A stretch of 64,000 bases of DNA from an uncultured Candidatus Saccharibacteria bacterium (GCA_964357605.1 CAYHLX010000004.1:1081-65080), one strand, 5' to 3'; shown: positions 2,746 to 56,953, counted from the stretch's first letter. Numbers and translations: made by a program. Notes: generated by a model not told the origin, from the letters alone.

Positions 2746-3556
2746 TTTCCAAAATATAAAAGAAATATTTCCACTCTCTATTTTTAAAGGAATTATATAG
2801 GTCAGAACCCTTAATTCCTGAAAAATCTACGGAGACTTTCTGAAATATTTTTGGTACTAGTTTTTTAATTGTATTCATCCTACGTTCACTATCTTTATCA
2901 AGAGCACTTACAACATTCATCGTTATGTCCTCATCTTTCACAATCCTCATGCCAGAATTAAGCAAATCTGATTTAAGTTGCTCCATTTTTTCTACCACAC
3001 GATAATCTGTAATAAGTAAACATCCTTTAGGGCGAAGGACTCTTCTAACCTCCTTAAGAAATTGAGGAAAATCCTCATAATGATGGGAAGTTTCAACATT
3101 TATTACAACATCAAATGAATTATCTAGGAAAGGAAGATTATGTGCATCAGCAACAATGAAAGATAGATTTTGAATTGATTTATATTTATCCTTGTTAAAA
3201 GTAATGGATCTTTTTGTAATATCACTTCCAACAACTTTTTTAGGTGACAAATATCTAGCAATGTAAGAAGCCCCCCCACCGCGACCACACCCAATCTCAA
3301 GTATATCCTTACCATACACATCAATACTTGAGGCAATGTGATTATATAACTGTAACGAATACCTATCATTTTCATCTATAGTTTCTAGTGGTAAATTACT
3401 ACCATCGTCATAACCATAATTCATAGTCATGATTTCATTATTTTTATCAAGAACACCTACTATTGAATACCAGCTATTTGATAAAAGTTTATTTAGTGGT
3501 TTGTATTCATAAATACTCATGAATAAACTATCCAAAAAAGAAGTGATTATTTTCAT
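2741..3556 (-). CDS. Class I SAM-dependent methyltransferase
   Basis: Motif I LEIGCGRGGGASY, acidic DI post-motif, DVVINVETSHH. AT-rich relative to its neighbours. Confidence 0.7.
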   Translation of the reverse strand: MKIITSFLDSLFMSIYEYKPLNKLLSNSWYSIVGVLDKNNEIMTMNYGYDDGSNLPLETIDENDRYSLQLYNHIASSIDVYGKDILEIGCGRGGGASYIARYLSPKKVVGSDITKRSITFNKDKYKSIQNLSFIVADAHNLPFLDNSFDVVINVETSHHYEDFPQFLKEVRRVLRPKGCLLITDYRVVEKMEQLKSDLLNSGMRIVKDEDITMNVVSALDKDSERRMNTIKKLVPKIFQKVSVDFSGIKGSDLYNSFKNREWKYFFYILEK

Positions 3557-3570
3557 ATAATTATTATAAC

Positions 3571-10344: not shown

Positions 10345-13300
10345 CTACTTATCAATACTCATTTTGAGAGCAAATTCTCCGATCGTCATAATTTCCCCTT
10401 CTAGATTTTCAAACTTTAAATCTTTCAGGAGAGTAGTTGAGAAAATGGAATTTTTATTTTTCATGATTAACTCTTGGGCTTTTGAATCTGCATCGATCTT
10501 AAGTATGATCTTATCTTGTATTGTAAAACCTTTCTCTTTTCTAAGGTCCTGAATAGTTCTAGTAAGTTCGCGAACAACTCCTTCTTCCTTCAATTCTGCA
10601 GTCAAAACTATGTCTAGCACAACCTCCTCCAAGATCGCTACGTCTGTGACCACCTCTTTAACATTTACCTCATCTTGAATAATCTTGACAAGATGAGCTG
10701 GAAATAAACCTTTGACAGTAAGTTTAGCCAATGGCTGTCTAACATTTATTTTAGCTTTCATACGGGCCTCGAGTCCTGTAGACGCTATCTGCCTTACTTC
10801 TTTCATATCAGAAAGAATTTTTTCATCTGGCTTTTTTAACTCTGGCCATTCCTCTAAATGAACACTTTCTTTTTCCCCTTTTACTCTCTGGTAGACATCT
10901 TCTGCTAGAAAAGGCATGAAAGGAGCTAACAGTTTAGAGAGATCCAAAAGAATCTTTCTTGTTGTAGAAAGAGCAGATCCCCTTTCATTGGCATCATCAT
11001 TCTTAAATCTATCCCGTGATCGACGAACATACCAAGTAGAAAGATCATCAATAAACTCGGCAAATGGTCTGGTCGCCCGATCTACTTCGTATTTTTCAAG
11101 GTTATCAGTCACCTCTTTACTCAACTCAGAAAGTCTCGCCGTAATCCATAAATCCAGAGGATCAACACTTTCAACTTCACTGGGAACATTTTTTGAGTAC
11201 ATCTCGTAGAAAGTCACGACGTTGTTCAAACGTCCAATATGTTTTTTAACAACCTCATCGACTCCCCGTTCGGAAAAACAAACATCTTGACTTCTCACCA
11301 CCGGAGATGACATCAGGAAATAACGCAGAGCATCCGCTCCATACTTATTTATCACCAAATTCAAATCAGGATAGTTTTTCTCCCTTTTCGACATCTTCCT
11401 ACCATCTTCTGCTAATACGAGACCATTGACCACCACTTTCTTGTATGGTGCTCTGCCAAACAAAGCCACTCCCAAAACCATCATAGAGTAGAACCATCCT
11501 CTGGTCTGATCCAAACCTTCGGCAATGAAATCGGCTGGATATCCCTTGGTCTTACCTAAAATCTTAGTAAATGGACCTGGTTTGGGGTTAAAATCACATT
11601 TTTCAAATGGATAGTGAGCTTCTCCAAAAGGCATGGAGCCAGATTCAAACCAGCAATCAAAAACTTCTGGAATTCTCGTAAGCTTATTTCCTTTTTCAGA
11701 AACAAGTTTCAGGTCATCAATGTATGGACGGTGGAGATCTGTTTCATATTCAGCATTATGTGGAAGCGGGTGAAAATCAAGCTTTCGGGGTTTGGCATTT
11801 TCATTGTAGTGATCACTGTGTCCCCTAAATAGAATAGATTCTATTCTATCCAAACCCCTCACCACAGTCTCCAAGAGAAAAAGGGGGGTGTCATGAGAAA
11901 TAATCAAGATATTTTTTCCTACATATTTCTTTTCTAGATCATAGAGCACCTCGCCCATTCTTTTTTTTATTTCTGTATAGTTCTCTCCGCCTTCAGGGAC
12001 ATCTATAAACCGATCTGCTTCTTTAAAGTGTGTCACAAAATCATGAAAGTTTTTGCCATTCCAGATTCCCGCATTTAATTCCTTCAATCTTTCATCAGTC
12101 AAAATATTTTTTCCATCAAGCCCTATTTCTCTGGCCACAATTTCTGAGGTCTGTTGTGTCCTCGGAAAAGGAGAGGTTACGATGAGATCTATTTTTTTAT
12201 CTTTCAGCCACTTTCCAGCTTCCTTGGCTTGTTTTTTTCCTTTTTCAGTTAGGTTGTGAGGATTGCTGGCGAGCGAACTGATCATAGAGGTGACGTTGTT
12301 GTCTGCTTCCCCATGGCGACTGACATAATAAGTATTTTTCGCATGGCTGTATTTTTTTAAGTCGGCAATGGAAGAGAGGATGTGACATGTGTCAGTTTTC
12401 TCTTCTCTCCAGACTGGCAATGGTGCTCCCCAGAAACGAGACCGCGAAATCGCCCAATCACGAGCACCCAAAAGCCAATTACCAAACCTCCCCTCTCCGA
12501 CTTCAGCTGGTGTCCATTTTACTTTTTTATTTTCTTTAACTAATTTATCTTTTAGATCTGTCACTTTTACAAACCAGGATGAAGAAGCATAATTTAAAAG
12601 TGGAGTATCACAACGCCAACAGTGTGGGTATGAGTGGATTAGTTTTTCTTTGGCAAAAAGAGTACCGTGAGCGGCAAGGTATTTGATGATCTCGATATCG
12701 GCTTTTTGATGTTTGTCTTTTTCTTCTTCGGTGGATTTCGGTTTGACATCAAGACCTACAAAATCCGTCACTTCTGATTTAAATTTACCATTTGTTCCAA
12801 CATGTTGAACAAAGGGTAAATTGTGTTTAAGAGATAACTCGTAGTCATCCGCCCCAAAGGCCGGAGCAATGTGCACGATCCCTGTTCCGTCCTCTGTCGT
12901 GACAAAATCACCCCCATAAACTTTCCAACCATTTTCCTTATTTTTTAATTTTGTATCTTTAGAATAGTAATCAAAAACTGGTTTGTATGATTTTCCAATA
13001 AGATCTTTTCCCTTGATTTCAGAGATTTGAGTATGATCAATTTTTATGGCAGATAGTCTAGATTTAGCGACATAGAAAAAATCGTTGTTTATTTTTATTT
13101 TGACATACTCAACCTCTGGACTAACGGCGAGAGCCACATTTCCAGGCAAGGTCCACGGTGTGGTTGTCCAGGCCAGAAAATAAGTACCCGGTTCATCAAC
13201 AAGCTCAAACTTCACATAGACAGAAATATCGGTGATGTCTTTATATCCTTGGCTCACCTCAAAATTGGAAAGAGTGGTCTCGCAACGCGGGCAGAGATTC

Positions 13301-13833
13301 ATAGACTTGAACCCTTCGTAAACCAAACCTTTCTTGTGTAATTCAGCAAAAGCCCACCAAACCGATTCTGTATACGTCGTATCCATGGTTCGATAATCAT
13401 TTTCCATATCTACAAAACGGCCAAGTCTGGGAATGATTCTTCTCCAATCATCGGCATATCTCATGACACTAGCTCGAGCTTTTTCATTAAATTTTTCTAT
13501 GCCATACTCAACGATATCTTTTTTTGAGGCGAGATTTAATTCTTTTTCTACAATATTTTCCACTGGCAAACCGTGACAATCCCAACCCCATCTACGACGT
13601 ACACGATAACCCTTCATCGTCTTGTATCGTGGAATCAGATCCTTTACCGTCCCCGGTACGACATGACCATAATGCGGTTCCCCAGTGGCAAAAGGAGGAC
13701 CGTCATAAAAGATAAAATCACCCTTGGGAGATTCTTTCTCAAGAGTTTTTTTGAAAATACCCTTTGCTTGCCAAAATTCCAGGATTTTCTCTTCAGTTAG
13801 GGCAACTTTACTTTTTTCCATATTAAATGCCAT
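10345..13833 (-). CDS. ileS: Isoleucyl-tRNA synthetase (type 2, eukaryote-like) with an inserted histidine-phosphatase (PGAM-like) domain
   Basis: DGPPFATGEPHYGH, zinc knuckles CPRC/CWRC around the CP1 editing domain, and KMSKR. About 200 aa (aa 495-690, nt 11764..12351) with RHGEADNN...LTEKGKKQA...ISHD lie between WGAPLPVW and TDLHRPY. One continuous frame. Confidence 0.85.
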   Translation of the reverse strand: MAFNMEKSKVALTEEKILEFWQAKGIFKKTLEKESPKGDFIFYDGPPFATGEPHYGHVVPGTVKDLIPRYKTMKGYRVRRRWGWDCHGLPVENIVEKELNLASKKDIVEYGIEKFNEKARASVMRYADDWRRIIPRLGRFVDMENDYRTMDTTYTESVWWAFAELHKKGLVYEGFKSMNLCPRCETTLSNFEVSQGYKDITDISVYVKFELVDEPGTYFLAWTTTPWTLPGNVALAVSPEVEYVKIKINNDFFYVAKSRLSAIKIDHTQISEIKGKDLIGKSYKPVFDYYSKDTKLKNKENGWKVYGGDFVTTEDGTGIVHIAPAFGADDYELSLKHNLPFVQHVGTNGKFKSEVTDFVGLDVKPKSTEEEKDKHQKADIEIIKYLAAHGTLFAKEKLIHSYPHCWRCDTPLLNYASSSWFVKVTDLKDKLVKENKKVKWTPAEVGEGRFGNWLLGARDWAISRSRFWGAPLPVWREEKTDTCHILSSIADLKKYSHAKNTYYVSRHGEADNNVTSMISSLASNPHNLTEKGKKQAKEAGKWLKDKKIDLIVTSPFPRTQQTSEIVAREIGLDGKNILTDERLKELNAGIWNGKNFHDFVTHFKEADRFIDVPEGGENYTEIKKRMGEVLYDLEKKYVGKNILIISHDTPLFLLETVVRGLDRIESILFRGHSDHYNENAKPRKLDFHPLPHNAEYETDLHRPYIDDLKLVSEKGNKLTRIPEVFDCWFESGSMPFGEAHYPFEKCDFNPKPGPFTKILGKTKGYPADFIAEGLDQTRGWFYSMMVLGVALFGRAPYKKVVVNGLVLAEDGRKMSKREKNYPDLNLVINKYGADALRYFLMSSPVVRSQDVCFSERGVDEVVKKHIGRLNNVVTFYEMYSKNVPSEVESVDPLDLWITARLSELSKEVTDNLEKYEVDRATRPFAEFIDDLSTWYVRRSRDRFKNDDANERGSALSTTRKILLDLSKLLAPFMPFLAEDVYQRVKGEKESVHLEEWPELKKPDEKILSDMKEVRQIASTGLEARMKAKINVRQPLAKLTVKGLFPAHLVKIIQDEVNVKEVVTDVAILEEVVLDIVLTAELKEEGVVRELTRTIQDLRKEKGFTIQDKIILKIDADSKAQELIMKNKNSIFSTTLLKDLKFENLEGEIMTIGEFALKMSIDK

Positions 13834-19019: not shown

Positions 19020-19592
19020 ATGATAGAGATTCCAACGATTGATGGCCTCAGTCGAGACCAAGTCCTAACGCTCATGAACTGCCGTTCTTACAAGCAGTAC
19101 TTGAGCATGATCAGTGATTACGAAGCGGGCCGATGCCCGTTTTGCGACCCACTCGATGAAAAAAACAAGGTTCTACACAGCGCCCTTGGTTGGAGGGTTT
19201 GGGAAAATCCCTACTCCCTCACGCACACTTCCCTCCACCTCATCATGGCGCCACAACAACACACGACATCGATAGAAGACATCTCACCATCCGATTTTGA
19301 AGCGATGGGAAGGATCTTCAAATGGGTACGATACCAATTCAACCTGCAGGGAGGAGCATTCGCCATGCGATTCGGCTCCCCGCAATTCAATGCTGGCAGT
19401 GTCCTACATCTCCACGCCAACATCATCGTTCCGGACCACTCTGGCGCCGTCCAAATCACCCTCGCCAAAGATACGGCAAAGGTTGAGGAGACCATTGCCC
19501 GGATGAAGGTTTTCGAGAAACTCCGTGGGAATACCGCCCCTGTTGGCCTTTCCGACAAAGAAGCGGCCCTAATCGAAGGTCGACTGACTTAA
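19020..19592 (+). CDS. HIT-like paralog of the preceding gene. GC-rich (about 50%).
   Basis: GRCPFC ... GGAFAMRFGS ... VLHLHANIIV. Same architecture as 18452..18955. Followed by a GC hairpin terminator at about 19615-19650. Confidence 0.55.
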   Translation: MIEIPTIDGLSRDQVLTLMNCRSYKQYLSMISDYEAGRCPFCDPLDEKNKVLHSALGWRVWENPYSLTHTSLHLIMAPQQHTTSIEDISPSDFEAMGRIFKWVRYQFNLQGGAFAMRFGSPQFNAGSVLHLHANIIVPDHSGAVQITLAKDTAKVEETIARMKVFEKLRGNTAPVGLSDKEAALIEGRLT

Positions 19593-26726: not shown

Positions 26727-26915
26727 ATGAAAAACTGGTCAACTGACACGAGAGAGCTAGAAAAAAACCATCAGCAGCTCGAGATATGGAAACTCGAACA
26801 ACTTATTAACTTTGGTCTAGACGGAAAAAAACTTAACAAAGAAACCCTAAAAAAGTATTGGGCTTCCCTCTCTCTAGATCCTTATAAAAAAAAGTTCTTA
26901 TCTCTTTTTCTTTAA
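26727..26915 (+). CDS. Small ORF (62 aa) translationally coupled to the AbiEii-like gene; possible cognate antitoxin
   Basis: TATAAT at 26715-26720. Its stop overlaps the next start (TAATG). Confidence 0.3.
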   Translation: MKNWSTDTRELEKNHQQLEIWKLEQLINFGLDGKKLNKETLKKYWASLSLDPYKKKFLSLFL

Positions 26916-27574
26916 TGAGTTCCATACTTTCAGAAAATCAGAAAAATTTGATCTCACTCATTGGAAAAGAATCTTCTCTGTGTAACGCTTTTTATTTAGG
27001 AGGAGGCACTGCACTCGCAGAATTTTATCTCCATCATAGATTATCTGAAGATCTTGATTTCTTTTCTGAGAATGAATTTGATCCTATGAGTATTACTGTC
27101 TTCTTCAAAAAAATCGAGAGAGAAGCGGGAATATTAAGAACTGAATATGAGCAGAGCTTTAACCGCAATCTTTTTTTTCTTGAACTCAAGAATGACAGAA
27201 TTAAGACTGAATTTACATATTTTCCCTTCCAGAGAGTTGAGAAAGACAATTATTTTAAAAATATCCAAATAGATAGTCTTCTAGATATAGCTATCAATAA
27301 AGTCTTTACCATTTATCAAAAACCTCGTTCGAGAGACTTCATCGATCTTTACTGTATATTACAAAAGGAAAAAGATTGGACTCTCGAAGAACTTGGAAAA
27401 AAAGCTCAGATCAAGTTCGACACGTATCTTGATCCGATCCAACTTGGCTCCCAACTTGTTAAGGTAACAGAATTAAAAGATTATCCACGAATGATCATTG
27501 AACTTAAGGAGAAAGACTGGCAAGATTTCTTTTTACATGAAGCAAGTAAATTGGAGAAAAGAATTCTGAGTTAA
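26915..27574 (+). CDS. AbiEii/AbiGii-family nucleotidyltransferase (type IV TA toxin / abortive-infection family)
   Basis: Motif LGGGTALAEFYLHHRLSEDLDFF. Confidence 0.75.
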   Translation: MSSILSENQKNLISLIGKESSLCNAFYLGGGTALAEFYLHHRLSEDLDFFSENEFDPMSITVFFKKIEREAGILRTEYEQSFNRNLFFLELKNDRIKTEFTYFPFQRVEKDNYFKNIQIDSLLDIAINKVFTIYQKPRSRDFIDLYCILQKEKDWTLEELGKKAQIKFDTYLDPIQLGSQLVKVTELKDYPRMIIELKEKDWQDFFLHEASKLEKRILS

Positions 27575-40790: not shown

Positions 40791-41567
40791 TTACAGGATC
40801 TGCAACGTCTTCAAAATTTCTGCGTTAACAATATCGATCTCTGCAACACTTCGACGATAACCATGCCCTATACCCCTAAGAAAAAGGTATCTCTTAGGTT
40901 CATTTGCGTTATCAAAGAGAATCTTCACCTCTTCTGGTAAGCAAACTTTGTCTAATTCTCCAGCAACAAATATTATTGGGGTGTGAATTTTCTTGACTGC
41001 TTGAATTGAATTAAATTTTAGACGATCAGTTAAATGATCATAAGGCAATTTAAAACTCTTGGTTTCACTACTACCTGGAATATCTCGAGTGGAAAGATAG
41101 AAGCCTTGCTTTTTCCAATTTGTGTATTTATCTCCCTTTAATTCTTCTGCTGAAATAGGGGTTGGTGGCATAATTGGTACGACTATGGAAATTCTTGGAT
41201 CTTGGGCTGCGTACAAAATAGAAATTTCCCCTCCCCGACTATGTCCACCAAGCAAGATAGTTTTGTAAGATTTTCTAGATAGCATGAAATCTAAAACACT
41301 CGCTACGTCTTTCAAATATCGAGAAACTGAATAATCAGCATCCTGACCATCACTTTCCCATGTTCCCAAAGGATCAAATCTTACCGTAGTGTAACCCTCT
41401 TTCGACAAAGTTTCAGCTAGTTTTATAAGATGATTATAATCTTTTGTATCTAGATTCCCTGGACACAAAACAGCAAGTTTATCTGTCTCAATTTCAGGAT
41501 AGTGAATAGCTGCTGCAATATTTTTCTTTGTCTTGATCGGAATTTTTACTTTTTCAGTTTTCATCAT
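40791..41567 (-). CDS. Alpha/beta hydrolase
   Basis: GGHSRGG nucleophile elbow. Confidence 0.6.
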   Translation of the reverse strand: MMKTEKVKIPIKTKKNIAAAIHYPEIETDKLAVLCPGNLDTKDYNHLIKLAETLSKEGYTTVRFDPLGTWESDGQDADYSVSRYLKDVASVLDFMLSRKSYKTILLGGHSRGGEISILYAAQDPRISIVVPIMPPTPISAEELKGDKYTNWKKQGFYLSTRDIPGSSETKSFKLPYDHLTDRLKFNSIQAVKKIHTPIIFVAGELDKVCLPEEVKILFDNANEPKRYLFLRGIGHGYRRSVAEIDIVNAEILKTLQIL

Positions 41568-41569
41568 CG

Positions 41570-41644
41570 TGGGGTGACTAGAGGGAATCGAACCCTCGAC
41601 GCCGCTGCCACAGAGCGGAGTTTTACCATTAAACTATAGCCACC
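41570..41644 (-). tRNA. tRNA-His (anticodon GTG) with encoded G-1 and CCA
   Basis: Cloverleaf folded by hand. Anticodon loop CTGTGGC. The extra 5' G pairs with discriminator C. Confidence 0.85.
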
Positions 41645-41694
41645 ATATACCGCGCACCACCAATTTATAACACACCTATCACTTCTTAGCGAGT

Positions 41695-42021
41695 CTAGGC
41701 CTGCACCTTATCTATCTTCGTTGCTAGAATAAAATCATTCTCTGTAAGCCCTGAGACAGCATGCGTCTGAAGCTCGATCGTCACTTTATTAAAATAAATG
41801 TGCAAATCAGGATGATGCCCTTCTGCCTCCGCAATGCCGGCCACTTTATTTACAAAAACCATGGCTTCAGTAAAATTGCCAAAAACAAATTCTTTTTTAA
41901 TCTTGATATCTCCTTCTACTTTCCAACCAGAGAGACCTTGCATAAAAATACTAATCTCTTCTGGAGTAAGAGCTTTGCCACCAACCTCACAGGGAATACA
42001 TTTTTTATTTGAGAGATCCAT
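41695..42021 (-). CDS. Pterin-4a-carbinolamine dehydratase
   Basis: EAEGHHPDL ... THAVSGLTEND. The start was moved to MDLSNKK so the gene clears tRNA-Leu. Confidence 0.75.
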   Translation of the reverse strand: MDLSNKKCIPCEVGGKALTPEEISIFMQGLSGWKVEGDIKIKKEFVFGNFTEAMVFVNKVAGIAEAEGHHPDLHIYFNKVTIELQTHAVSGLTENDFILATKIDKVQA

Positions 42022-42025
42022 AATA

Positions 42026-42109
42026 TGGTGCCCAGGAGAGGATTCGCACCTCCACGCCTTACGGCACACGCACCTCAAGCGTGCTTGGCTACTGTTACAA
42101 CACCTGGGC
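42026..42109 (-). tRNA. tRNA-Leu (anticodon GAG), type II with a long variable arm, CCA encoded
   Basis: Acceptor GCCCAGG/CCTGGGC and anticodon stem CACGC/GCGTG with loop TTGAGGT. Confidence 0.8.
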
Positions 42110-42784
42110 ATTAATGCTTTCTTGTTTCTTCACTATACCCAAACTTTTCTTTATTTTCAAGTACTTTCTAGTTAAAAATAGGCTCTCTTTATTTTTATAC
42201 ATATATTTGAAAAGTATGACTGACTCATTTTTTGCATATTTTAACTGAAAACAAGACTGATTTTTTGATTTGGTAATATGCCCTTTTATTTCAATTTCTT
42301 TACGTAGAGTATCTTGTAACCAGGTAATATGCTTTTTACTTGCAGATATAAATTCCAAATACAACATAAAACTTGATTTCCATCTTTTATCCCAATAGGA
42401 GTATGAGCATCCATCTCCATCAAAACTTCCTCTTATGAAGTCTCTCATGTATTTTTGTGGAACATCTATCTTTCCTATAGTTTTTGATTTATTAGATGTC
42501 AAACCAATCGACTGAAGAAATTTGTAAAATAAAACATCACCTATTTGAATAACATAGTATTTCTTTTCAGACCCTGATCCACTTCCTTTCATACAGTAAT
42601 CGTATGAAATACTTAGAGCTTTCTGAAAATTATCGACCATTTCTTTATCTATAGATGTAAAAGAGATATGCCTATTATCTGGTGATAAGTTCCCATCAGT
42701 TGCAATAAGCCCGATCGCATACGCAAAATTAGCTGACCATTTGATCTTCACTTTACCTCTTGGTTTTGGTCCTCTCTTCCCCAT
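42095..42784 (-). CDS. LAGLIDADG-family homing endonuclease (two-motif, free-standing)
   Basis: AYAIGLIATDGNLS and FIRGSFDGDGCSY motifs. The 3' end overlaps the 5' end of tRNA-Leu by 15 nt. Confidence 0.65.
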   Translation of the reverse strand: MGKRGPKPRGKVKIKWSANFAYAIGLIATDGNLSPDNRHISFTSIDKEMVDNFQKALSISYDYCMKGSGSGSEKKYYVIQIGDVLFYKFLQSIGLTSNKSKTIGKIDVPQKYMRDFIRGSFDGDGCSYSYWDKRWKSSFMLYLEFISASKKHITWLQDTLRKEIEIKGHITKSKNQSCFQLKYAKNESVILFKYMYKNKESLFLTRKYLKIKKSLGIVKKQESINAQVL

Positions 42785-42900
42785 CAGTTAATAATACTAG
42801 ATATTAAAAACTACTCAAGGTGATAGCATCTACCTATTTATAAATAAATATAGGCCGTGGGTATTTCCCACGGCCTTCGTAAACACAAGGCGCAAACAAG

Positions 42901-43746
42901 TCAGAACTGCTCCGTAAGTTTGGCGATGGTTTTGTAGCGTTCGAAAAGAAGCTGTTTGATCGCTTCACCATCCTTCTCCTGGCTCTTCCGAAATGGGTCC
43001 TTGTCAAACGCCTCTGCCTTGTTCCCACCCTTCCACAGCCGCCACTCATCCGGCGTGATTGCATCAATCACCACCGTCCTCCCCGTCAAAGGACAGATGC
43101 CAACCTCAATCTTGAGATCCACCAGGGTGTACCCAAGTTTCGCCCACGATTTGGCCAGAATCCGATAAGTATTGAGGACAAGCACGTTAACTTCCAGGAA
43201 GAAATCACTGATTTCCTCACAGGAAGGTGCATGCCCCCACAGATCCCACCTTTCATCCTTGAAATCCAGGAACCCAAGTCCTGAACCAGTCGCTGTGAGT
43301 GGCAAAGCCGGCTTGTGAAGTGTGTATAGACCCTCCATGGAATCAGCCGTCTGAATAAACGGGTCATGCCGAGCGTCATCCTTTAAGAACATTTCGGTGA
43401 TGGGGCTCCCGAAAACCTCGCCCTCTTTCGCATCAGGATTGCGTTTGAGGTATGAGCCGGTAGCAATACCACGGCAAACGACTTCCACCGGCGCTGGGTA
43501 TGCATACAAAGCCATGAAAGAATCACGCCCCGAGGCCTCGATGAAAGTGGTAGATATACCACTCTTGTGAAGAAGGCGGAAGCAGTTGCCAGCAATGGCA
43601 GAGGATAGTGCCCCTTTGCCCGGCACCCGGATCAATGAGGCGCCATCGCCAGCAGTCACGTTGTCAGAAAAATGCACCTGCACAACCTGAGAAGGAAAAC
43701 CTCTGATTGTCTTGGTTTTTCCTTGATGGAATTTGATCGTCTTCAT
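42901..43746 (-). CDS. purC: SAICAR synthetase (PurC, short bacterial type). GC-rich (about 50%).
   Basis: Blocks HQGKTKTIRG, FSDNVTAGDGAS, VEVVCRGIATGSYLKR, LVDLKIEVG, and RLWKGGNK match E. coli PurC. Confidence 0.85.
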   Translation of the reverse strand: MKTIKFHQGKTKTIRGFPSQVVQVHFSDNVTAGDGASLIRVPGKGALSSAIAGNCFRLLHKSGISTTFIEASGRDSFMALYAYPAPVEVVCRGIATGSYLKRNPDAKEGEVFGSPITEMFLKDDARHDPFIQTADSMEGLYTLHKPALPLTATGSGLGFLDFKDERWDLWGHAPSCEEISDFFLEVNVLVLNTYRILAKSWAKLGYTLVDLKIEVGICPLTGRTVVIDAITPDEWRLWKGGNKAEAFDKDPFRKSQEKDGEAIKQLLFERYKTIAKLTEQF

Positions 43747-43890
43747 GAGATGAACTTTCTTTTCTGTATCTAGCCTTAGCTAGGAGTTTATGGTTTACCG
43801 CATTTACATCCTGATGCTATCATTTGAATATGCTCTGTCAAGAAAAAGAAAAAACCGCTTTCGCGGGTCTTTCTTTTTGTATTTTGTAAC

Positions 43891-44343
43891 TTAAGCCGCC
43901 ACCTCTTCTTTCTTTTCTCCTGCTACAACTGCAATCTTGGTGTCCGTGTTCTGTTCAGGGTCAATCGCTAGCAAACGTCTCATTTGTTTTCTAATCTCCT
44001 TTGTAGCTTTTTCACGAACGAAATATAGCTTAGCTCGGCGCACCTTTGAGCGGCGAAGTAGTTCAATCTTATCAATCATGGGAGAATAGAGAGGAAAAAT
44101 CTTTTCTACACCCACCCCGTCAATCACCTTTCTAACAGTAAAAGTCGCTCCGGCTTCTGTACCATGCTTTCGAGAAAGAACTAGGCCTTCAAAAGCTTGA
44201 AGACGTGTCTTATCCTTTTCCTTAACCTTTTGCCAAACACGCACATTGTCACCAGAACGAAGACTCAGAGCCTTGCGTTCCTCTACATTTATCGGAGAAT
44301 TTATATTTTTATTTGTAGCCATACGTAGGGACAAATCTATCAC
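43891..44343 (-). CDS. rplS: 50S ribosomal protein L19
   Basis: Typical L19 core ...[12 protein letters not shown]... Confidence 0.9.
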
Positions 44344-45122
44344 ACGAGCCTTTTTTTGGCAAATTCCTCCATCCCTAGCTCCTTCATCGCCTCTTTAAAA
44401 TCTTTAGGTAAAGGAGCGGTCACCATTATCTCTTTCCCCTTACGATTTTTGAAGGAAATAAAGAAAGCGTGCAAAGCGGTTCTTTGAAACCCCAGAGCCA
44501 CTGGTTTATCACTAGCATAAAGCCTGTCACAGACCACTGGGTGATTAATTGCCTTAAAATGCACTCTGATCTGGTGTGTCCTACCAGTCTTCGGTTCTAT
44601 CTCCACCAAAGAAAATCCAGACTTAAAAGCCATCATCGTCCACCAAGTTTCCGCCTCTCTCATCTCTCCCTTTGCTCCACGAGTCGCCGAAAATCTTCTA
44701 AAATCACTAGGACTTTTGCCGATTGGACGATTGATAATTCCGTACTTCTCTTTCATATCACCGTAAACAAAAGCAAAATATTTCTTGGATACGATTCTAT
44801 TTTGAAATTGCTCTTTCAAGTGAGCGTAGCCTTTTTTGGTCTTAGCAATGAGCATCACGCCTGAGGTTCCTCTATCTAGTCTATGTACAATTCCTGGACG
44901 CTCTATAGTCTTCCCCTCTCCTGTAACAATAGGTTCTCCCACCCCCTTAGTCTTGGGGTACTTTTTTATAATCCAATCTACCAGAGTCGGTTCTTCCGTT
45001 CTACCATCAGAATGCACCACCAAACCAGCCGGCTTGTTAATGGCCAAAATGTCCGGATCTTCATATAAAATTGTAATGGTATTGTTTTTCAAATTAATTG
45101 TTTCTTTAGACCCTCTATCCAT
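44340..45122 (-). CDS. RluA-family pseudouridine synthase (second copy)
   Basis: [16 protein letters not shown]. Confidence 0.8.
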
Positions 45123-45751
45123 CCGAGTATCCTAAGCAAGAGCTTTGTATCGCCAACTCCGACGTCAAGAGTACCATATTTTAAAGTTTTACGAAGATTT
45201 TTTGAACTTTTACTTTTAATTGCATATGTTTTAAAAAACTGAGAGAGTGGTATCTTAGTAATTTCTGACCAATATTTCTCTGCTTCTTTTACTATTTGAG
45301 TAGAGTGAACATGGATATGAGCGCGGAATCTACTTTCCTCAACCTTACATATTTCCCTAAAAAATCTCATTCCCATCATTATCATGAACGGATCGCTATT
45401 ACTAATACGAGCCATACCTTTTGATGTCTTAGCTCCTTCACCCCAATACAAACCGAGACCTAATATTTTAAGAGATTCGTGATCTATTTTTCTAATCTCT
45501 CTAGATGCCAAATCAATAATTTGACTCTTTTTATAAGATTCGTTTTTCAATCTACTCTGACGCCTCTTTTCAACCACCTCAGGAGAATGGCTTCTTCTTT
45601 TTAAATTTAGTTTTTGCTGTGAAGTTAGGGTAATATCTCTAACCCAAGTACTCACACTTCCCTTAGCGACAGACAACTCTTCAGAAATATCTTTTACAGA
45701 GTATCCTTTACTTCTCATTTCTACAGCTTTTTGTTTTATTTTAGGCTTCAT
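45089..45751 (-). CDS. HTH-domain protein with one LAGLIDADG-like motif (homing-endonuclease-like)
   Basis: N-terminal HTH (YSVKDISEELSVAKGSVSTWV) and ILGLGLYWGEGAK. Confidence 0.4.
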   Translation of the reverse strand: MKPKIKQKAVEMRSKGYSVKDISEELSVAKGSVSTWVRDITLTSQQKLNLKRRSHSPEVVEKRRQSRLKNESYKKSQIIDLASREIRKIDHESLKILGLGLYWGEGAKTSKGMARISNSDPFMIMMGMRFFREICKVEESRFRAHIHVHSTQIVKEAEKYWSEITKIPLSQFFKTYAIKSKSSKNLRKTLKYGTLDVGVGDTKLLLRILGWIEGLKKQLI

Positions 45752-45838
45752 GACTATTATAGTATATCGCTATAACACAAGAAGTCAAGACTGGAATGAT
45801 TGAAAATTTATCTTTTTTAGTCTATGCTACCTACTATT

Positions 45839-45914
45839 GCGCGATTAGCTCAGTTGGTAGAGCAACATGCTTACACCATGAAGGTCGCAGGTTCAAGTCC
45901 TGCATCGCGCACCA
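45839..45914 (+). tRNA. tRNA-Val (anticodon TAC), CCA encoded
   Basis: GCGCGAT acceptor, anticodon loop CTTACAC, T-arm GCAGG-TTCAAGT-CCTGC. Confidence 0.85.
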
Positions 45915-45920
45915 TAAAAA

Positions 45921-45952
45921 CAAAAAATACCCCGAAGGGTATTTTTTGTTTC
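45921..45952 (+). terminator. Rho-independent terminator after tRNA-Val
   Basis: AAAAATACCC-gaag-GGTATTTTTTG. Confidence 0.6.
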
Positions 45953-45967
45953 AAAGAAAATCTCAAA

Positions 45968-46348
45968 CTACATATTCATTGAAGACGAAGAATTTTTTGC
46001 AGAAAAACCAGCGATGAGCATAACTAGACCCAACACTATGTGTAACCAAGCATCAGCTCCATTGTAAGCGATAAAGCCTAGAAGTTGACCCTCACCAACA
46101 TAGAATCCTAGGATTGCAATGATAATAAAGATCACACCAAAGATCTTCAAAGCTAGAGGTGCCTTTGAAGGAGATCGTGATGCAATAAGTAGGAAGATCA
46201 AACCAGTAACTAGGCTCACAAGATTGTGGGCTAGGTTAACCATAAATATCGATTCTCCACTTGCACCCACTATCGGATTTGGGAAAAGCCCTAAGATACC
46301 TACTAATAGAAATATTACACCAAAGATCGTTGCTAATGTTTTAGCCAT
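45968..46348 (-). CDS. Hypothetical membrane protein (4 TM)
   Basis: Hydrophobicity pattern only. Confidence 0.4.
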   Translation of the reverse strand: MAKTLATIFGVIFLLVGILGLFPNPIVGASGESIFMVNLAHNLVSLVTGLIFLLIASRSPSKAPLALKIFGVIFIIIAILGFYVGEGQLLGFIAYNGADAWLHIVLGLVMLIAGFSAKNSSSSMNM

Positions 46349-46460
46349 ATAAATACTAATTTAAATTAATAATAACCCTTAAAAGCTACTAGAATATTAT
46401 ATCACGAAAATATTACTGTTATCTACAACTTATTAACAAGTTATACACAGATAGCCATTG

Positions 46461-46532
46461 TGCCTTCGGTAGGAATCGAACCTACATCAAGACCTTAGAA
46501 GAGTCCTGTTCTATCCATTGAACTACGAAGGC
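46461..46532 (-). tRNA. tRNA-Arg (anticodon TCT)
   Basis: Acceptor GCCTTCG/CGAAGGC, anticodon loop CTTCTAA. No encoded CCA. Confidence 0.8.
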
Positions 46533-46561
46533 GAACCTTAGGAATATACCAGAAATATGAC

Positions 46562-46894
46562 CTATTGCGAAGGGTCAGTGATTCCAGAGAAGCCTCTTGC
46601 AGCTTGTTCAGACTTTGAAGCCTTCGCATCAAAAATCTTAATAGTCTCAGCAAGAGCCTTGCTATCAAAAGAAATCGCATCTCCAGATGAAGTAGAAATG
46701 GTATATTGTATTCTACCTTGAGTCACCGCAAAATATAGGTAGGTACTCCCTATTGCCAAAACGACAATCACAATTACAGTTATAGAGATAATCATCAACC
46801 AGTCAATGTATGAATTTCGCCCAACCTCTTTCATAGCTCGAGAAAAGGATAGGCTAGAAGTTGCAAGATGATTTTTTGAAAGATGATTATCCAT
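46562..46894 (-). CDS. Hypothetical membrane-anchored protein, last gene of the pilMNO operon
   Basis: One TM helix. Operon position only. Confidence 0.3.
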   Translation of the reverse strand: MDNHLSKNHLATSSLSFSRAMKEVGRNSYIDWLMIISITVIVIVVLAIGSTYLYFAVTQGRIQYTISTSSGDAISFDSKALAETIKIFDAKASKSEQAARGFSGITDPSQ

Positions 46895-46900
46895 ATTAAT

Positions 46901-47473
46901 TTAAATAGTTTGCTTAGCCAACACTCTAATTGTCATGGACATACCCCACGATTTCACTGATGCACCTTTTTTTGAGGGAGCAATCAGATCGTCTCCCAGT
47001 GTAGATAATTTTAAGTTATTAATCTCCAAACTGTATGGTAGGTTTTCAATTAAAATCAAAGCTCTCATAATGTTGATCCAAGAACCCTTAACTGCCAGAG
47101 TGGCGTTTATATGAGTCAGTCCATTGGTTTCATCTTCTTTTGGTTTTTCTGTATTTATAGCAGATATTTCAAGATCTGTGGCTGAATTCTCACCAGCTTT
47201 TTCTATAGCCTCAATAAGACCTACAATCTTCTCTTCCGGTACAATAAAAGAATTAATCCTTGCACGGGCATTCAATGAATCAGCATACAGGGCAGTCAGT
47301 TCTCTTTCTACTAACTTTTTATTATTCTCAAGTGTAAATTCAGCTAAAGCTTGAGAGGATTCTCTAGCTTGAGACACTACCTGTCTATAGAGTAATAAAT
47401 AACTAGCCGCCGAAACAACTAAGGCAACAAGGGCAATGGTAATGAGAATGTAATGTTTATAATTTACTTTCAT
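46901..47473 (-). CDS. pilO: PilO-like type IV pilus assembly protein
   Basis: N-terminal TM, coiled coil, and order after pilM-pilN. Confidence 0.5.
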   Translation of the reverse strand: MKVNYKHYILITIALVALVVSAASYLLLYRQVVSQARESSQALAEFTLENNKKLVERELTALYADSLNARARINSFIVPEEKIVGLIEAIEKAGENSATDLEISAINTEKPKEDETNGLTHINATLAVKGSWINIMRALILIENLPYSLEINNLKLSTLGDDLIAPSKKGASVKSWGMSMTIRVLAKQTI

Positions 47474-50570: not shown

Positions 50571-51029
50571 ATGAAACCCCTCATGGAATGGGATGCTCCC
50601 GATCATCTTCATATAGAAAAAAATAGTGATTGGTACTGGGCAGTCGGTATTGTCACTATTACTGCCGTAACCCTAACTTTTATGTTTGGTAATGTCATCT
50701 TTGGCATCCTTATCTTAATTGGGGTCTTTTCTCTACTTGTTCATGCAGGCAAAAAACCAAAAATCATTCATGTAGAAATAAACGACAGAGGACTGGTGGT
50801 AGATGATATCCTTTATCCTTTTATTACCTTGGAATCATTTTGGATTGACGCTCATGAACGTCCTGGCAAAATACTTTTGAAATCTCTCAAAACTTTCATG
50901 CCCTATATAATTGTCTATATTGATGAAGTAGATTCAGAAGAGGTGAGAGATGTATTGCTAAACTACATTGCCGAAACAGAGCATCACGAACCATTATCTC
51001 AAAAGATCATGGAGAGGTTTGGATTTTAG
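50571..51029 (+). CDS. Hypothetical membrane protein
   Basis: Two TM helices. Confidence 0.4.
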   Translation: MKPLMEWDAPDHLHIEKNSDWYWAVGIVTITAVTLTFMFGNVIFGILILIGVFSLLVHAGKKPKIIHVEINDRGLVVDDILYPFITLESFWIDAHERPGKILLKSLKTFMPYIIVYIDEVDSEEVRDVLLNYIAETEHHEPLSQKIMERFGF

Positions 51030-54319: not shown

Positions 54320-55354
54320 TTAGTCATAAAAAAGCCTTGCTATAGAATCTTTAATTTTCTCACTTTTACAATGAGAGAGCATACCGAGATAAGATTGCAT
54401 TGATTGTTCAAGAAATTCTTTGGTGATTTTTCCTTCTTCGTATGAACATTTTAGTTTTCGTATTTTATTGAGCATCCTTCTCTTGGTTCTCGTCCTCAAA
54501 ACTTTGTGGTGTGGTAAGGATACATAGCCAAGAAAATCCGTCCCTGTGTTCAATTTTCTTATAGTTACCTTATTTGGATGAAGTTCCATCCGAAGATTAT
54601 CTGTTAAAAATGATTGGATTTTTAAAATACACTCTTGTAAAAAGTCTCTGGAGTTATGAACGATAACAAAATCATCACAGTAACGAATATAATATTTCGT
54701 TTTGAGTGTATGTTTGCAAAATTGATCTAGCTCATTGAGATAGATATTTGCGAATACCTGGCTAGTTACATTGCCCAAAGGCAAACCTTTTCCCTGCGTC
54801 ACCTTAAATGAATCTATGATTTTATTAAGAAGATCTAAAAGCTCCTCGTCATGTACCCTCTTTCCCACCAGAGATTTGAGAACTTGGTGATCAATTGAAT
54901 CAAAGAATTTTCTGATATCGCATTTAAGAACAAAAGCTTGCTGTGTATAATTTCTAGAAACCTTTCTTGAAAATTGTTCCAATCTCTCTACTCCCTTGTG
55001 AGTACCTTTGTCATCTCTTGACGCAAAAGAATCATGAATAAAAGTCTTATCAAAAACCTGATATAATGCCTGATACAGAGCTTGGTAAAGGACCCTATCA
55101 CGGACACTCGCTTTGTGAATTTTCCTCAATTTCGGATCTTGGACATAGAATGCCTTGTATGGATCAGGCTTCCACTTACCAATAATTAGTTCGTTGCAAA
55201 GACTAAAAAGATTTTCCTCCAAATTAAACTCAAATTCTGCAACTTCTTTTTTTGATCTTTTTCCTTTTCTAAATCTTTTCCACGCCCGAAACAGATTTTC
55301 AAGACTTATTACATCACAAAAATTCAAACTATGACGCCCCCCCCCCGAACACAC
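54320..55354 (-). CDS. Diversity-generating retroelement reverse transcriptase
   Basis: 344 aa with RT motifs, YCDD box, and the DGR-specific motif-4 signature LGNVTSQVFANIYLNELD. GTG start directly followed by a G10 tract. Confidence 0.85.
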   Translation of the reverse strand: MCSGGGRHSLNFCDVISLENLFRAWKRFRKGKRSKKEVAEFEFNLEENLFSLCNELIIGKWKPDPYKAFYVQDPKLRKIHKASVRDRVLYQALYQALYQVFDKTFIHDSFASRDDKGTHKGVERLEQFSRKVSRNYTQQAFVLKCDIRKFFDSIDHQVLKSLVGKRVHDEELLDLLNKIIDSFKVTQGKGLPLGNVTSQVFANIYLNELDQFCKHTLKTKYYIRYCDDFVIVHNSRDFLQECILKIQSFLTDNLRMELHPNKVTIRKLNTGTDFLGYVSLPHHKVLRTRTKRRMLNKIRKLKCSYEEGKITKEFLEQSMQSYLGMLSHCKSEKIKDSIARLFYD

Positions 55355-56092: not shown

Positions 56093-56953
56093 TTAGGACT
56101 TGCGAAGGGCAAAGAACTCTACCAAGCGAGCCCCGAGGCTCGGAGAGCAAAGGCCACGAGAGTGCCAGCGGAAATCGGCCTGAGCGCTGTCGACGACCCA
56201 GTAGCCGTGCGCCACCCGCTCGCCACCAGGCAACCGATCATCAGGAAACCATGTGAGCGTTTCCCCAGAATCAAGATGCTCGTCGGTGATTAGGAAGTGG
56301 AGATTATCCGCATCTGACCAACCAAACAGGTTAATCCAGTTCTGATTCTTCTCAACCTTGACTTCGAGGAGTCCGTCCGGCGACTTGGCATTTTTGCCCA
56401 AGGTATCTGCATCAGGCCGAATAGATCGCTTGATGAAACCGAGTTGAGAAATATCTAAACCCCTAGAGTTCTTGTATTTCATCACGTCTGCTTCCTCGTA
56501 AGAGGCGTTCATGCCGAGCTTCATCTTCCAGTCAAGCGCCATCCTATTGGTGGCACCGGCGGGACGAAAAACTGGCATGATGTCGGTCCGGGCCAAGACT
56601 CGGTCATCCATCATGAACATGTCCCGGAAGATGACTGTCTCGCCCGTGAGGAACTTGTGAAGTTTCTCTCGAGCTTCCAGCCATTCTGCGAAGGTCTCGC
56701 CGGTGGCGGTGAGAATGAGTGGTTCGGGAGTTGGGACCTTTGCAGATTCCACGACCTCAACCCTGCTCACCTCTCCTGGAAGGACGAAACCTCGACGCAA
56801 CACTTCCTGCAGTTGAGGCAGGTTTTGTTCGTAGTGTTCCAATTGCTCAATCGTGAGAACTTGAGGCATATTGGAGACCAGTTTTAGGCCGAGGTTAAAT
56901 CCACGCACAATGAGTGCTGGATCCTGTGTTTCAATCAAGGGTATACCTTTCAT
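56093..56953 (-). CDS. DGR target (variable) protein with VR at the C-terminus. GC-rich (about 50%).
   Basis: 286 aa. The last ~38 codons are the VR. C-terminus WSDADN...GYWVVDSAQADFRWH resembles C-type-lectin-fold DGR variable domains (inference). Confidence 0.7.
   Translation of the reverse strand: MKGIPLIETQDPALIVRGFNLGLKLVSNMPQVLTIEQLEHYEQNLPQLQEVLRRGFVLPGEVSRVEVVESAKVPTPEPLILTATGETFAEWLEAREKLHKFLTGETVIFRDMFMMDDRVLARTDIMPVFRPAGATNRMALDWKMKLGMNASYEEADVMKYKNSRGLDISQLGFIKRSIRPDADTLGKNAKSPDGLLEVKVEKNQNWINLFGWSDADNLHFLITDEHLDSGETLTWFPDDRLPGGERVAHGYWVVDSAQADFRWHSRGLCSPSLGARLVEFFALRKS
56122..56234 (-). repeat. DGR variable repeat (VR)
   Basis: 25 mismatches to TR, 22 of them at TR adenine positions. 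The shared 3' end CCAAGCGAGCCCCGA is an IMH-like GC-rich segment. Confidence 0.8.

Follow-up and report, generated by a model that had tools for sequence, protein, structure and literature searches.

This study concerns a stretch of 64,000 nucleotides from an uncultured Candidatus (Ca.) Saccharibacteria bacterium (GCA_964357605.1, CAYHLX010000004.1:1081-65080), called the window at its full length and numbered from its first letter. We analyzed the segment 41570–46532, in which a gene for a LAGLIDADG-type endonuclease abuts tRNA-Leu(GAG), a gene for a protein with an N-terminal helix-turn-helix (HTH) lies beside tRNA-Val(TAC), and a GC-rich purC gene (SAICAR synthetase) is situated between the endonuclease gene and rplS. 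A preliminary description, made from the sequence alone, had taken the segment for a tRNA-rich island with a horizontally acquired purC and two LAGLIDADG-type genes. We found that the gene with the genuine LAGLIDADG motifs shares with all its assessable homologues the position next to tRNA-Leu(GAG), and that among close relatives it is exchanged together with the allele of this tRNA gene.

All features mentioned in the following are located on the minus strand unless indicated otherwise. The four tRNA genes, including the previously reported tRNA-His and tRNA-Leu(GAG) on the minus strand, were all called by ARAGORN: tRNA-His(GTG) at 41570–41643 (Rfam tRNA, 64.6 bits), tRNA-Leu(GAG) at 42026–42109, tRNA-Val(TAC) on the plus strand at 45839–45914 (Rfam, 70 bits) and tRNA-Arg(TCT) at 46460–46532 (also found by Rfam). 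Between them lie the LAGLIDADG gene (42095–42784, 229 amino acids), purC (42901–43746, 281 amino acids), rplS for ribosomal protein L19 (43891–44343; Pfam Ribosomal_L19, 2.9e-34), an RluA-family pseudouridine synthase gene (44340–45122; TIGR00005, 1.4e-66) and the HTH gene (45089–45751, 220 amino acids). The presence of rplS, of the RluA-family gene and of an N-terminal-HTH gene divergent from tRNA-Val is thus as it had been described. The true start of rplS is probably the ATG at 44322. RluA probably starts with the TTG at 45092, judging from the N-termini of relatives without the HTH gene; in the window this TTG overlaps the HTH stop codon.

For comparison, 80 loci were fetched from species-representative genomes (GTDB) with the RluA protein and annotated with tblastn and ARAGORN. 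They originate from Ca. Taylorbacteria, Zambryskibacteria, Campbellbacteria, Nomurabacteria and other Paceibacteria. A further 80 metagenome loci were fetched with the LAGLIDADG protein, so that this sample of occupied sites was picked by similarity to the window protein. The order tRNA-Arg(TCT)/tRNA-Val(TAC)/RluA/L19/tRNA-Leu(GAG)/tRNA-His(GTG) is common to nearly all 80 GTDB loci, with tRNA-His 3’ of tRNA-Leu, and the tRNA/RluA/L19 order recurs in the roughly 160 related loci altogether. No integrase domain was found among the open reading frames (ORFs) of the window (Pfam, NCBIfam). Attachment-site-like repeats were also not found: there was no repeat of ≥14 nt involving a tRNA end and no duplication of a tRNA 3’ end. 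The term island therefore does not describe the segment, and an integrase-type island was rejected. The region likely, if not firmly so, belongs to the conserved core of a chromosome of the Candidate Phyla Radiation (CPR), from a Ca. Taylorbacteria-like member of the Paceibacteria, and three independent optional cassettes have been placed into it.

A LAGLIDADG gene at tRNA-Leu(GAG)

The 229-aa protein matches Pfam LAGLIDADG_3 (37.8 bits against a cutoff of 22.5; 2.3e-9) and PHROG 4645, annotated as “endonuclease” (6.8e-32), and its NCBI name is LAGLIDADG family homing endonuclease. The family profile aligns to the archaeal intron endonuclease I-Tsp061I (PDB 2DCH; 1.4e-5) with both motifs covered. 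In an alignment of 33 diverse members D29-G30 (GLIATDG) and D121-G122-D123-G124 (FDGDG) are invariant and, as judged from this alignment, a catalytic acidic residue is present at the end of both LAGLIDADG helices. The gene is hence a two-motif LAGLIDADG endonuclease gene, as had been proposed. The family comprises more than 3,700 clusters at 90% identity in Patescibacteria, with a uniform length of about 222 aa. A consensus match to a promoter (TTGAGT-16-TATTAT) precedes the gene at 42791–42818.

An Rfam search of 41400–47000 returned no group I intron or other intron family at E≤1, the hits being tRNAs and chance matches. Since in addition the ORF is intergenic and the tRNA uninterrupted, a group I intron around the ORF was rejected and the gene is filed as free-standing, in line with the earlier suggestion. 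It is under strong purifying selection, the ratio of nonsynonymous to synonymous substitution rates (dN/dS) being 0.05–0.2. Its synonymous divergence (dS) equals that of the neighboring genes (about 1) in the locus pair L034/L037 and lies above it in L111/L158.

The position of the gene proved to be fixed. All 11 GTDB homologues (48–58% identity) lie between L19 and tRNA-Leu(GAG), and all 77 assessable metagenome homologues (49–74% identity) end ≤100 nt before tRNA-Leu(GAG) on the same strand; three of the 80 metagenome loci were not assessable as they are cut by contig ends. Together with the window, 89 of 89 assessable homologues abut tRNA-Leu(GAG), which bears out the supposed tie to the tRNA-Leu neighborhood. 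When each homologous ORF was extended to its stop codon, this codon was found at a median of 3 nt before position +1 of the tRNA (range −45 to +32), and 23 of the 89 ORFs overlap the tRNA. The reported 15-nt overlap in the window, which we located at 42095–42109 with the stop codon included, is therefore a family trait.

The ORF also harbors the promoter of the tRNA. In the window a sigma-70-type promoter for tRNA-Leu (TTGAAA-17-TATAGT, 42160–42132) was found by promoter scan inside the last ~25 codons, where it is encoded by the invariant Leu-Lys-Ile and by Ile-Val codons. By eye, a TTGAAAAT-~17-TATAGT-like promoter can be recognized in the last ~25 codons in most of the printed loci, and a strict regular expression for this element matches 52 of the 89 homologues. 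The same promoter element lies upstream of tRNA-Leu in the endonuclease-less loci L001, L004 and L023.

One contig (L141) carries, besides the usual copy at tRNA-Leu(GAG), a LAGLIDADG paralogue with 48% identity (3380–4036, minus strand) that abuts tRNA-Leu(CAG) (3301–3387, minus strand).

The gene is present in about 16% of the species representatives (11 of 69), and relatives differ in its presence or absence, a polymorphism that had been named as worth checking. The closest relative of the window, L001 (L19 96%, RluA 91% identical), keeps purC and its terminator, directly followed by tRNA-Leu without the LAGLIDADG gene. In the pairwise alignment an endonuclease-specific segment at about 42161–42851 of the window replaces 16 nt of L001. 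On the right this segment is bounded precisely by the −35 box, and the tRNA-Leu genes of the two are 80% identical. The second near-isogenic pair, L108 (with the gene) and L039 (without), is the most telling one; its members are identical to 98.6% over 2,943 bp on one flank and to 97.5% over 3,029 bp on the other. The two differ by a clean endonuclease indel of 704 bp that starts right after the L19 terminator. Downstream, 36 of the 76 differences fall within the first ~130 nt, comprising promoter, leader and the whole of tRNA-Leu, which is 82% identical with all stem changes compensated; beyond it there is about 1 difference per 100 nt.

The same was seen when all close pairs, defined as pairs of loci with an L19 nucleotide identity of ≥0.80, were considered. 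Median tRNA-Leu identity was 0.82 for pairs differing in endonuclease status (n = 5; window/L001 adds 0.80), compared to 0.98 for pairs both without (n = 8) and 1.00 for pairs both with the gene (n = 10). In both carrier pairs with divergent endonucleases the tRNAs are divergent too. In every close pair differing in the gene tRNA-Leu is 76–89% identical; in two of them, L074/L073 and L054/L059, the neighboring tRNA-Val and tRNA-Arg are ~95–100% identical. As the tRNA-Leu allele is replaced along with the gene, simple deletion offers no explanation. From these comparisons the endonuclease, the promoter and the tRNA-Leu allele are exchanged between genomes as a unit. Furthermore, endonuclease identity spans 55% to 81% at equal host divergence and does not follow the host markers (Spearman −0.04, compared to 0.39 between L19 and RluA; 47 taxa). 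Gene remnants were detected in the empty sites of L055 (residues 175–214, E = 2e-4), L052 and L057.

The tRNA-Leu(GAG) gene of the window was missed by the Rfam tRNA model even at E≤1, because its D-loop lacks G18 and its T-loop (UGCGAAU) carries G55. Among 129 unique tRNA-Leu(GAG) alleles from this slot (loci L001–L163) we found G18/U55 in 102 and A18/G55 in 27, with no mixed combination. The variant is present in 24 of 79 unique alleles beside the endonuclease and in 3 of 50 from empty sites (Fisher 7e-4, uncorrected for phylogeny and sampling); restricted to the GTDB set, the variant occurs at 3 of 12 occupied and 3 of 58 empty sites. Two near-isogenic pairs show the variant, window/L001 and L108/L039, and in both A18/G55 belongs to the occupied site, the empty site having the canonical allele. 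A18/G55 without the gene occurs in L027, L063 and L057, the last of which carries an endonuclease remnant. On the trees, which are neighbor-joining trees, the variant is scattered over the endonuclease family with 20 changes, no different from random labels, and many further positions distinguish the two kinds of allele.

It would be attractive to think of a T-loop that resists cleavage, compensated by the change in the D-loop. This cannot be general as far as the alleles indicate, since 70% of the occupied alleles are of the canonical type and the four aligned pairs with and without the gene share no position of difference. With A18/G55 scattered and no such shared position, a universal “immunity” substitution in tRNA-Leu was rejected. 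In a literature search we found no description of an A18/G55 covariation in bacterial tRNAs. As a natural experiment on the elbow of tRNA the covariation is a clean one, and it is also a warning for annotation, as tRNAs of this type are missed by the Rfam model.

The HTH gene at tRNA-Val(TAC) and purC

The HTH gene resembles the LAGLIDADG gene in its attachment to one tRNA. In all 12 assessable homologues it is divergent from tRNA-Val(TAC), with a distance of 76–243 nt between its start codon and the 5’ end of the tRNA, so that the supposed tie of this gene to the tRNA-Val neighborhood was substantiated as well. In L168 it is still found at tRNA-Val(TAC) though all other neighbors differ. Where relatives lack the gene, a few nucleotides at most separate the RluA start from the tRNA-Val promoter, and the TGA stop of the HTH gene overlaps a TTG corresponding in alignment to the RluA start codon found in other genomes. 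The pair L068/L073 differs by a clean indel of ~730 nt: from the tRNA-Val 5’ end onward the cassette takes the place of the upstream region, tRNA-Val itself being 93% identical. In the window the cassette brings promoter-like sites for both the HTH gene and tRNA-Val. The former, at 45761–45788, was found by promoter scan and from the junction sequences and probably also drives RluA-L19; the latter (TTGAAA-17-TATGCT, 45800–45828, plus strand, promoter scan) lies inside the cassette-specific spacer. Remnants of the HTH gene in empty tRNA-Val sites were not found in 81 loci.

The protein consists of the N-terminal HTH and an uncharacterised alpha/beta domain. Its family comprises ~490 clusters of uniform length annotated as “hypothetical”. 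In the family alignment Y101, E104, G105, K107, N117, D119 and W160 are invariant, and the C-terminal domain is marked by the motifs LYWGEGxK and NSDP. Beyond the HTH no sequence match was obtained in Pfam, NCBIfam or PDB, and no LAGLIDADG Pfam match was found in 42 family members, nor in 10 distant or two-copy members. An hhalign comparison of the HTH family (profile A1) with the LAGLIDADG family (A2) gave a probability of 0.1%, upon which the notion that the two proteins are paralogues was rejected. With a broader HTH profile (A4) the match to A2 is weak (P = 0.036), its register being as expected: GLYWGEG/ARISNSDP/helix aligns with GLIATDG/HISFTSKD/helix. AlphaFold2 models of the protein reached predicted confidence scores (pLDDT) of 90 and 92. 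Among their Foldseek hits I-Tsp061I appears at a weak template modelling (TM) score of 0.40, and among the 50 top-ranking BFVD hits, which are weak, at least 10 are LAGLIDADG/DOD endonucleases or belong to kinds of protein in which inteins are common. Two-copy fusions of the C-terminal domain exist. The label “single-LAGLIDADG-like” that had been attached to this protein is not established by these results: there is no Pfam or PDB match, the Foldseek search was not significant, and the hints in register are weak. Most likely the HTH protein is a site-specific nuclease of a selfish cassette, predicted to have possibly a very divergent LAGLIDADG-like fold; alternatively, it is a promoter-binding regulator.

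The C-terminal domain belongs to a superfamily of 4,185 clusters at 50% identity for which there is no curated domain. Both distant members that we examined run into the 5’ end of a tRNA gene, P0479 into tRNA-Lys(CTT) and P0417 into tRNA-Arg(TCT), which suggests subfamilies dedicated to different tRNAs. The respective coordinates are 1–495 with the tRNA at 412–485 in L172, and 793–1191 with the tRNA at 1153–1226 in L173.

Within the window we found no further copy of the LAGLIDADG or the HTH family. The ORF 50571–51029 between tRNA-Ser and tRNA-Arg was considered as a third cassette and rejected, as it encodes a conserved membrane protein present in relatives.

For purC the Pfam match is clear (SAICAR_synt, 143.7 bits, 1e-41), with a score below the NCBIfam TIGR00081 equivalog cutoff (100.9 vs 189.9). 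The best solved relative is the SAICAR-synthetase half of human PAICS (ADE2, PDB 2H31; 3.9e-38), and classical bacterial PurC structures match more weakly (~1e-25 or weaker). The alignment with PAICS falls into two segments, residues 5–130 and 193–276, with the blocks GKTK, RGIATGSYLKR, LVDLKIEVG and DKD..R aligned. In contrast to human PAICS the window protein is a stand-alone PurC of 281 aa; fused PurC-PurE relatives are found among its homologues, which form a small clade of eight sequences. No other pur gene was detected among the 56 window ORFs scanned with Pfam over the 64 kb.

In agreement with the preliminary description the gene has a GC content of about one half (0.517) and overlapping spurious ORFs on both strands. 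Its GC content at third codon positions (GC3) is 0.578 compared to a median of 0.35 over 62 window ORFs (robust z 5.7), which makes it one of three extreme outliers among them. The 10-bp hairpin noted earlier as its terminator was found with a T-tract at 42852–42876 by terminator scan. In L001 it is conserved with a compensatory G:C to A:T change. A promoter-like site (TTGACA-16-TAGCAT with TG, promoter scan) lies at 43814–43841. Comparison with purC of L001 (1397–2251) yielded a dN/dS of 0.146, with values of 0.10–0.19 in all three thirds of the gene, and the ORF is intact in five lineages. Because of this dN/dS purC is regarded as functional; with its own promoter-like site and terminator it forms a self-contained transcription unit.

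The arrangement RluA-L19-purC recurs in five loci (window, L001, L002, L169 and L170; 47–72% amino acid identity) and purC is absent from the other 80 GTDB loci. Thus the best hits of the gene come from the same lineage and from the same slot between L19 and tRNA-Leu, and L001 is as GC-rich as the window, the very outcome that the preliminary description had named as speaking against its reading. With relatives of this kind recent transfer was rejected, and the GC signal is no evidence for it. A strong excess of GC3 (+0.25) characterizes the window and L001; in L002, L169 and L171 the excess is smaller, and L170 shows none. The simplest reading of these patterns is that purC was acquired by the ancestor of the subclade, probably from a GC-richer donor, and then inherited vertically with uneven amelioration. 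Of the horizontal acquisition that had been proposed for purC, an older event in a small subclade is therefore plausible, given the absence from the 80 GTDB loci, and a recent one is contradicted by the relatives in the same slot. GC content alone misdates the acquisition.

One feature of purC is a synonymous divergence from L001 (dS 1.31) that is two to four times that of L19 (0.34) and RluA (0.67). Its amino acid identity is 72.6%, with 91–96% for the neighbors, and the L19-purC spacer is 92% identical. The excess may reflect allelic replacement or a gene-specific rate effect. A co-conversion gradient emanating from the endonuclease was rejected, as purC diverges most in its middle and not at the end that faces the endonuclease. 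GC-biased conversion is an unlikely cause of the GC content, as the adjacent endonuclease gene has a GC content of 0.31 and the boundaries are sharp. The two genes are also independent in their occurrence: L001 and L170 have purC without the endonuclease, and most occupied loci lack purC.

Proposed homing, its alternatives and known systems

Taking these data together, the LAGLIDADG gene is probably a free-standing, site-specific homing-endonuclease cassette, the HTH gene a second cassette of the same life-style and purC an older acquisition, a reading in which we place fair but incomplete trust and which is drawn from sequence comparison. The LAGLIDADG enzyme would cut endonuclease-less alleles in or beside tRNA-Leu(GAG), and repair of the double-strand break from the occupied chromosome would copy the endonuclease, the promoter and the linked tRNA allele as one unit. 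Such a process would amount to intronless homing with co-conversion. The tract that is replaced invariably extends from the endonuclease to the 3’ end of the tRNA, which makes cleavage within the tRNA gene likelier than cleavage at the insertion point. We speculate that clean loss of the gene would be costly, with the promoter of a presumably essential tRNA-Leu inside the ORF, and that a stop codon inside the tRNA may lead upon RNase P processing to stop-less mRNAs and perhaps low expression. The HTH cassette, docked in divergent orientation at the 5’ end of tRNA-Val(TAC), would follow the same life-style. purC would be part of neither endonuclease cassette and would have been inherited in the same slot since its acquisition by the ancestor of the subclade.

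Several observations weigh against this reading. The sample of close pairs is small (5–10 pairs per class) and partly redundant. Over all distances tRNA-Leu identity tracks the host markers (Mantel 0.21–0.25, p≤0.001) and not the endonuclease (Mantel 0.05, p = 0.23), so that co-inheritance of tRNA and endonuclease across all distances was rejected and the link is seen among close relatives only. As mentioned above, no tRNA-Leu position differs in all four aligned pairs with and without the gene, and the sequences of such pairs do not distinguish gain of the gene from its replacement by an empty allele. Long-lasting purifying selection (dS ~1 with dN/dS 0.05–0.2) and a very large family would also fit a role beneficial to the host. 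For the HTH protein Foldseek with the AlphaFold2 models gave no significant match, the best being the OmpA-like YfiB (TM 0.40–0.45). The clade of purC forms a long, isolated branch.

A beneficial role leads to the alternative that the LAGLIDADG protein is a domesticated host factor, either a regulator of the tRNA-Leu promoter comparable to WhiA or an RNA-binding helper in tRNA-Leu maturation or folding comparable to maturases. This would account for purifying selection like that of the neighboring housekeeping genes and for the co-divergence with the host in some pairs. The very large, length-uniform family, the absolute linkage to one tRNA gene whose promoter and leader are overlapped, and the enrichment of A18/G55 tRNAs beside the gene (24/79 vs 3/50) can be understood in the same way. 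However, a host factor would not be expected in merely ~16% of the species representatives, nor to be missing from strains that are 98–99% identical in the flanks, nor to leave degenerate remnants in empty sites. A18/G55 tRNAs also exist without the gene (L027, L063). Moreover, both catalytic acidic residues are invariant, whereas WhiA, a LAGLIDADG-derived regulator, and many maturases have lost them. We consider a host factor unlikely on balance.

Still less probable is an ancient resident gene that is recurrently deleted without ongoing homing. C-terminal as well as N-terminal remnants in empty sites, a promoter in the empty alleles that resembles the coding 3’ end of the gene, and a dS equal to that of the neighbors in L034/L037 all agree with loss. 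Deletion does not explain, however, why tRNA-Leu is also replaced in every close pair differing in the gene, with tRNA-Val and tRNA-Arg nearly unchanged in two of them. Endonuclease divergence is decoupled from the host, with a dS above that of the neighbors in L111/L158, and catalytic residues kept at low dN/dS need selection for activity.

That the GC content of purC betrays a recent acquisition and that the tRNA-rich stretch as a whole is an integration island, as the GC3 of purC (z 5.7), its absence from the 80 related GTDB loci, its own promoter and terminator and two other GC-rich ORFs in the window might suggest, is very improbable in view of nearest relatives in the same slot at 47–72% amino acid identity with synonymous sites saturated or nearly so, a GC excess that is the same in L001 and missing in L170, a surrounding gene order that is conserved backbone, and integrase and att repeats that were not found. 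On this evidence, to read the segment as a tRNA island plus a foreign purC is wrong.

Homing endonucleases are usually seen as passengers of introns and inteins or as free-standing phage genes. Compared to archaeal intron enzymes of the I-Tsp061I (PDB 2DCH) and I-DmoI type, the window protein likewise belongs to LAGLIDADG_3 and has two motifs with a catalytic Asp in ~220 aa. In CPR bacteria LAGLIDADG genes have been described inside insertion sequences of rRNA genes (PMC11270868), a report confined to rRNA genes in which tRNA is not mentioned. The choice of highly conserved CPR RNA genes as a home is shared with our gene. In contrast to intron and insertion-sequence enzymes the latter lies outside any intron or insertion sequence, and the tRNA is uninterrupted. 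In a literature search we found no description of LAGLIDADG genes at tRNA genes in CPR bacteria.

The nearest likeness among free-standing enzymes is to SegB of phage T4, a GIY-YIG homing endonuclease in the T4 tRNA gene cluster, which recognises the T-psi-C stem-loop DNA in tRNA genes and promotes its own inheritance along with that of the tRNA genes around it (PMC2330249). In both cases a free-standing endonuclease among tRNA genes is exchanged with the adjacent tRNA, here the tRNA-Leu allele. Our gene differs from SegB in being of the LAGLIDADG and not the GIY-YIG type, in residing on a CPR chromosome and not in a phage, in keeping one fixed address at a single tRNA species across a bacterial class, and in having the tRNA promoter inside the ORF; it is known from sequence comparison and its cleavage is predicted. 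Intronless homing and marker exclusion are also the mode of T4 SegF and SegG. The same has been described for T4 MobE (PMC2790892). With these three our system has in common an endonuclease gene beside its target, co-conversion of flanking markers and neighboring alleles that differ between donor and recipient. Here, in contrast, a tRNA gene serves as the marker, its stem changes all being compensated, and the system is chromosomal and long-lived (dS ~1 under purifying selection). With the tRNA islands of tyrosine integrases it shares accessory DNA adjoining tRNA genes; it differs in that insertion is on the 5’ (promoter) side, that single genes of 0.7 kb are involved and that integrase and att repeats were not found.

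A very large CPR family thus keeps one chromosomal address beside a single tRNA gene, overlaps its promoter and is exchanged with the tRNA allele. If cleavage holds true, intronless homing would no longer be a matter of phages alone but also of cellular chromosomes, the mosaic tRNA alleles of CPR genomes would be explained, and natural, highly specific LAGLIDADG enzymes would become available whose targets can be read from the genome context. More tentatively, and at somewhat less than an even chance, CPR/Patescibacteria may carry a general undescribed class of tRNA-docked single-gene endonuclease cassettes. Each would be dedicated to one tRNA species, inserted at the 5’ edge of the tRNA, hard to delete by taking over or carrying its promoter, and spread by gene conversion with a compensated, possibly cleavage-resistant tRNA allele. 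Members would be the LAGLIDADG family at tRNA-Leu(GAG) and tRNA-Leu(CAG) and, as a diverged LAGLIDADG lineage or a new nuclease fold, the HTH “LYWGEGxK/NSDP” superfamily (>4,000 clusters; tRNA-Val, tRNA-Lys, tRNA-Arg), and the switch from G18/U55 to A18/G55 would be a by-product of an arms race. The HTH family may represent a site-specific nuclease domain that is new or very divergent, and could be more novel than the LAGLIDADG system.

Further features of the backbone and the window

Other genes also vary within the backbone. A pterin-4a-carbinolamine dehydratase gene (41695–42021; Pfam Pterin_4a, 1.3e-30; NCBIfam PRK00823), omitted from the preliminary description, lies between tRNA-Leu and tRNA-His, where it is variably present and also occurs in L010, L024 and L030. 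A DUF4383 membrane protein gene (45968–46348; Pfam, 1.6e-20) is likewise variably present and was also found in L004 and L015. Directly 3’ of tRNA-Val and before this convergent gene, a perfect 15-bp inverted repeat with a 4-nt loop (45918–45951) is probably a bidirectional terminator. Next to tRNA-His an alpha/beta hydrolase gene was identified at 40791–41567 (Pfam/NCBIfam). In a relative a gene for a large serine recombinase adjoins tRNA-His in the same backbone (L164, 5441–6666; L165, 2619–3843), and mobile DNA of other types is thus also found between L19 and tRNA-His. Unrelated inserts of 0.6–3 kb occupy the spacer from L19 to tRNA-Leu in L002, L016, L030 and L071.

Elsewhere in the window lie the two other GC-rich ORFs. 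The strongest compositional outlier of the window (GC3 0.60, no Pfam match) is separated by ~0.7 kb from a reverse transcriptase (RVT_1) gene, the coordinates of the two being 54320–55354 and 56093–56953, both on the minus strand; together they may be a diversity-generating retroelement or another foreign cassette. The second, at 19020–19592 on the plus strand (GC3 0.60, 190 aa, no Pfam or PHROG match), has a HIT-family gene as its neighbor and belongs to a nucleotide and folate gene cluster (thyA, dUTPase, dCMP deaminase, DHFR, SHMT, FolD). The isoleucyl-tRNA synthetase (1162 aa; 10345–13833, minus strand) has a His_Phos_1 domain inserted at residues 503–654, in the middle of its catalytic domain. 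Finally, an AbiEii nucleotidyltransferase toxin domain of the type IV toxin-antitoxin/abortive infection kind is encoded at 26915–27574 on the plus strand.

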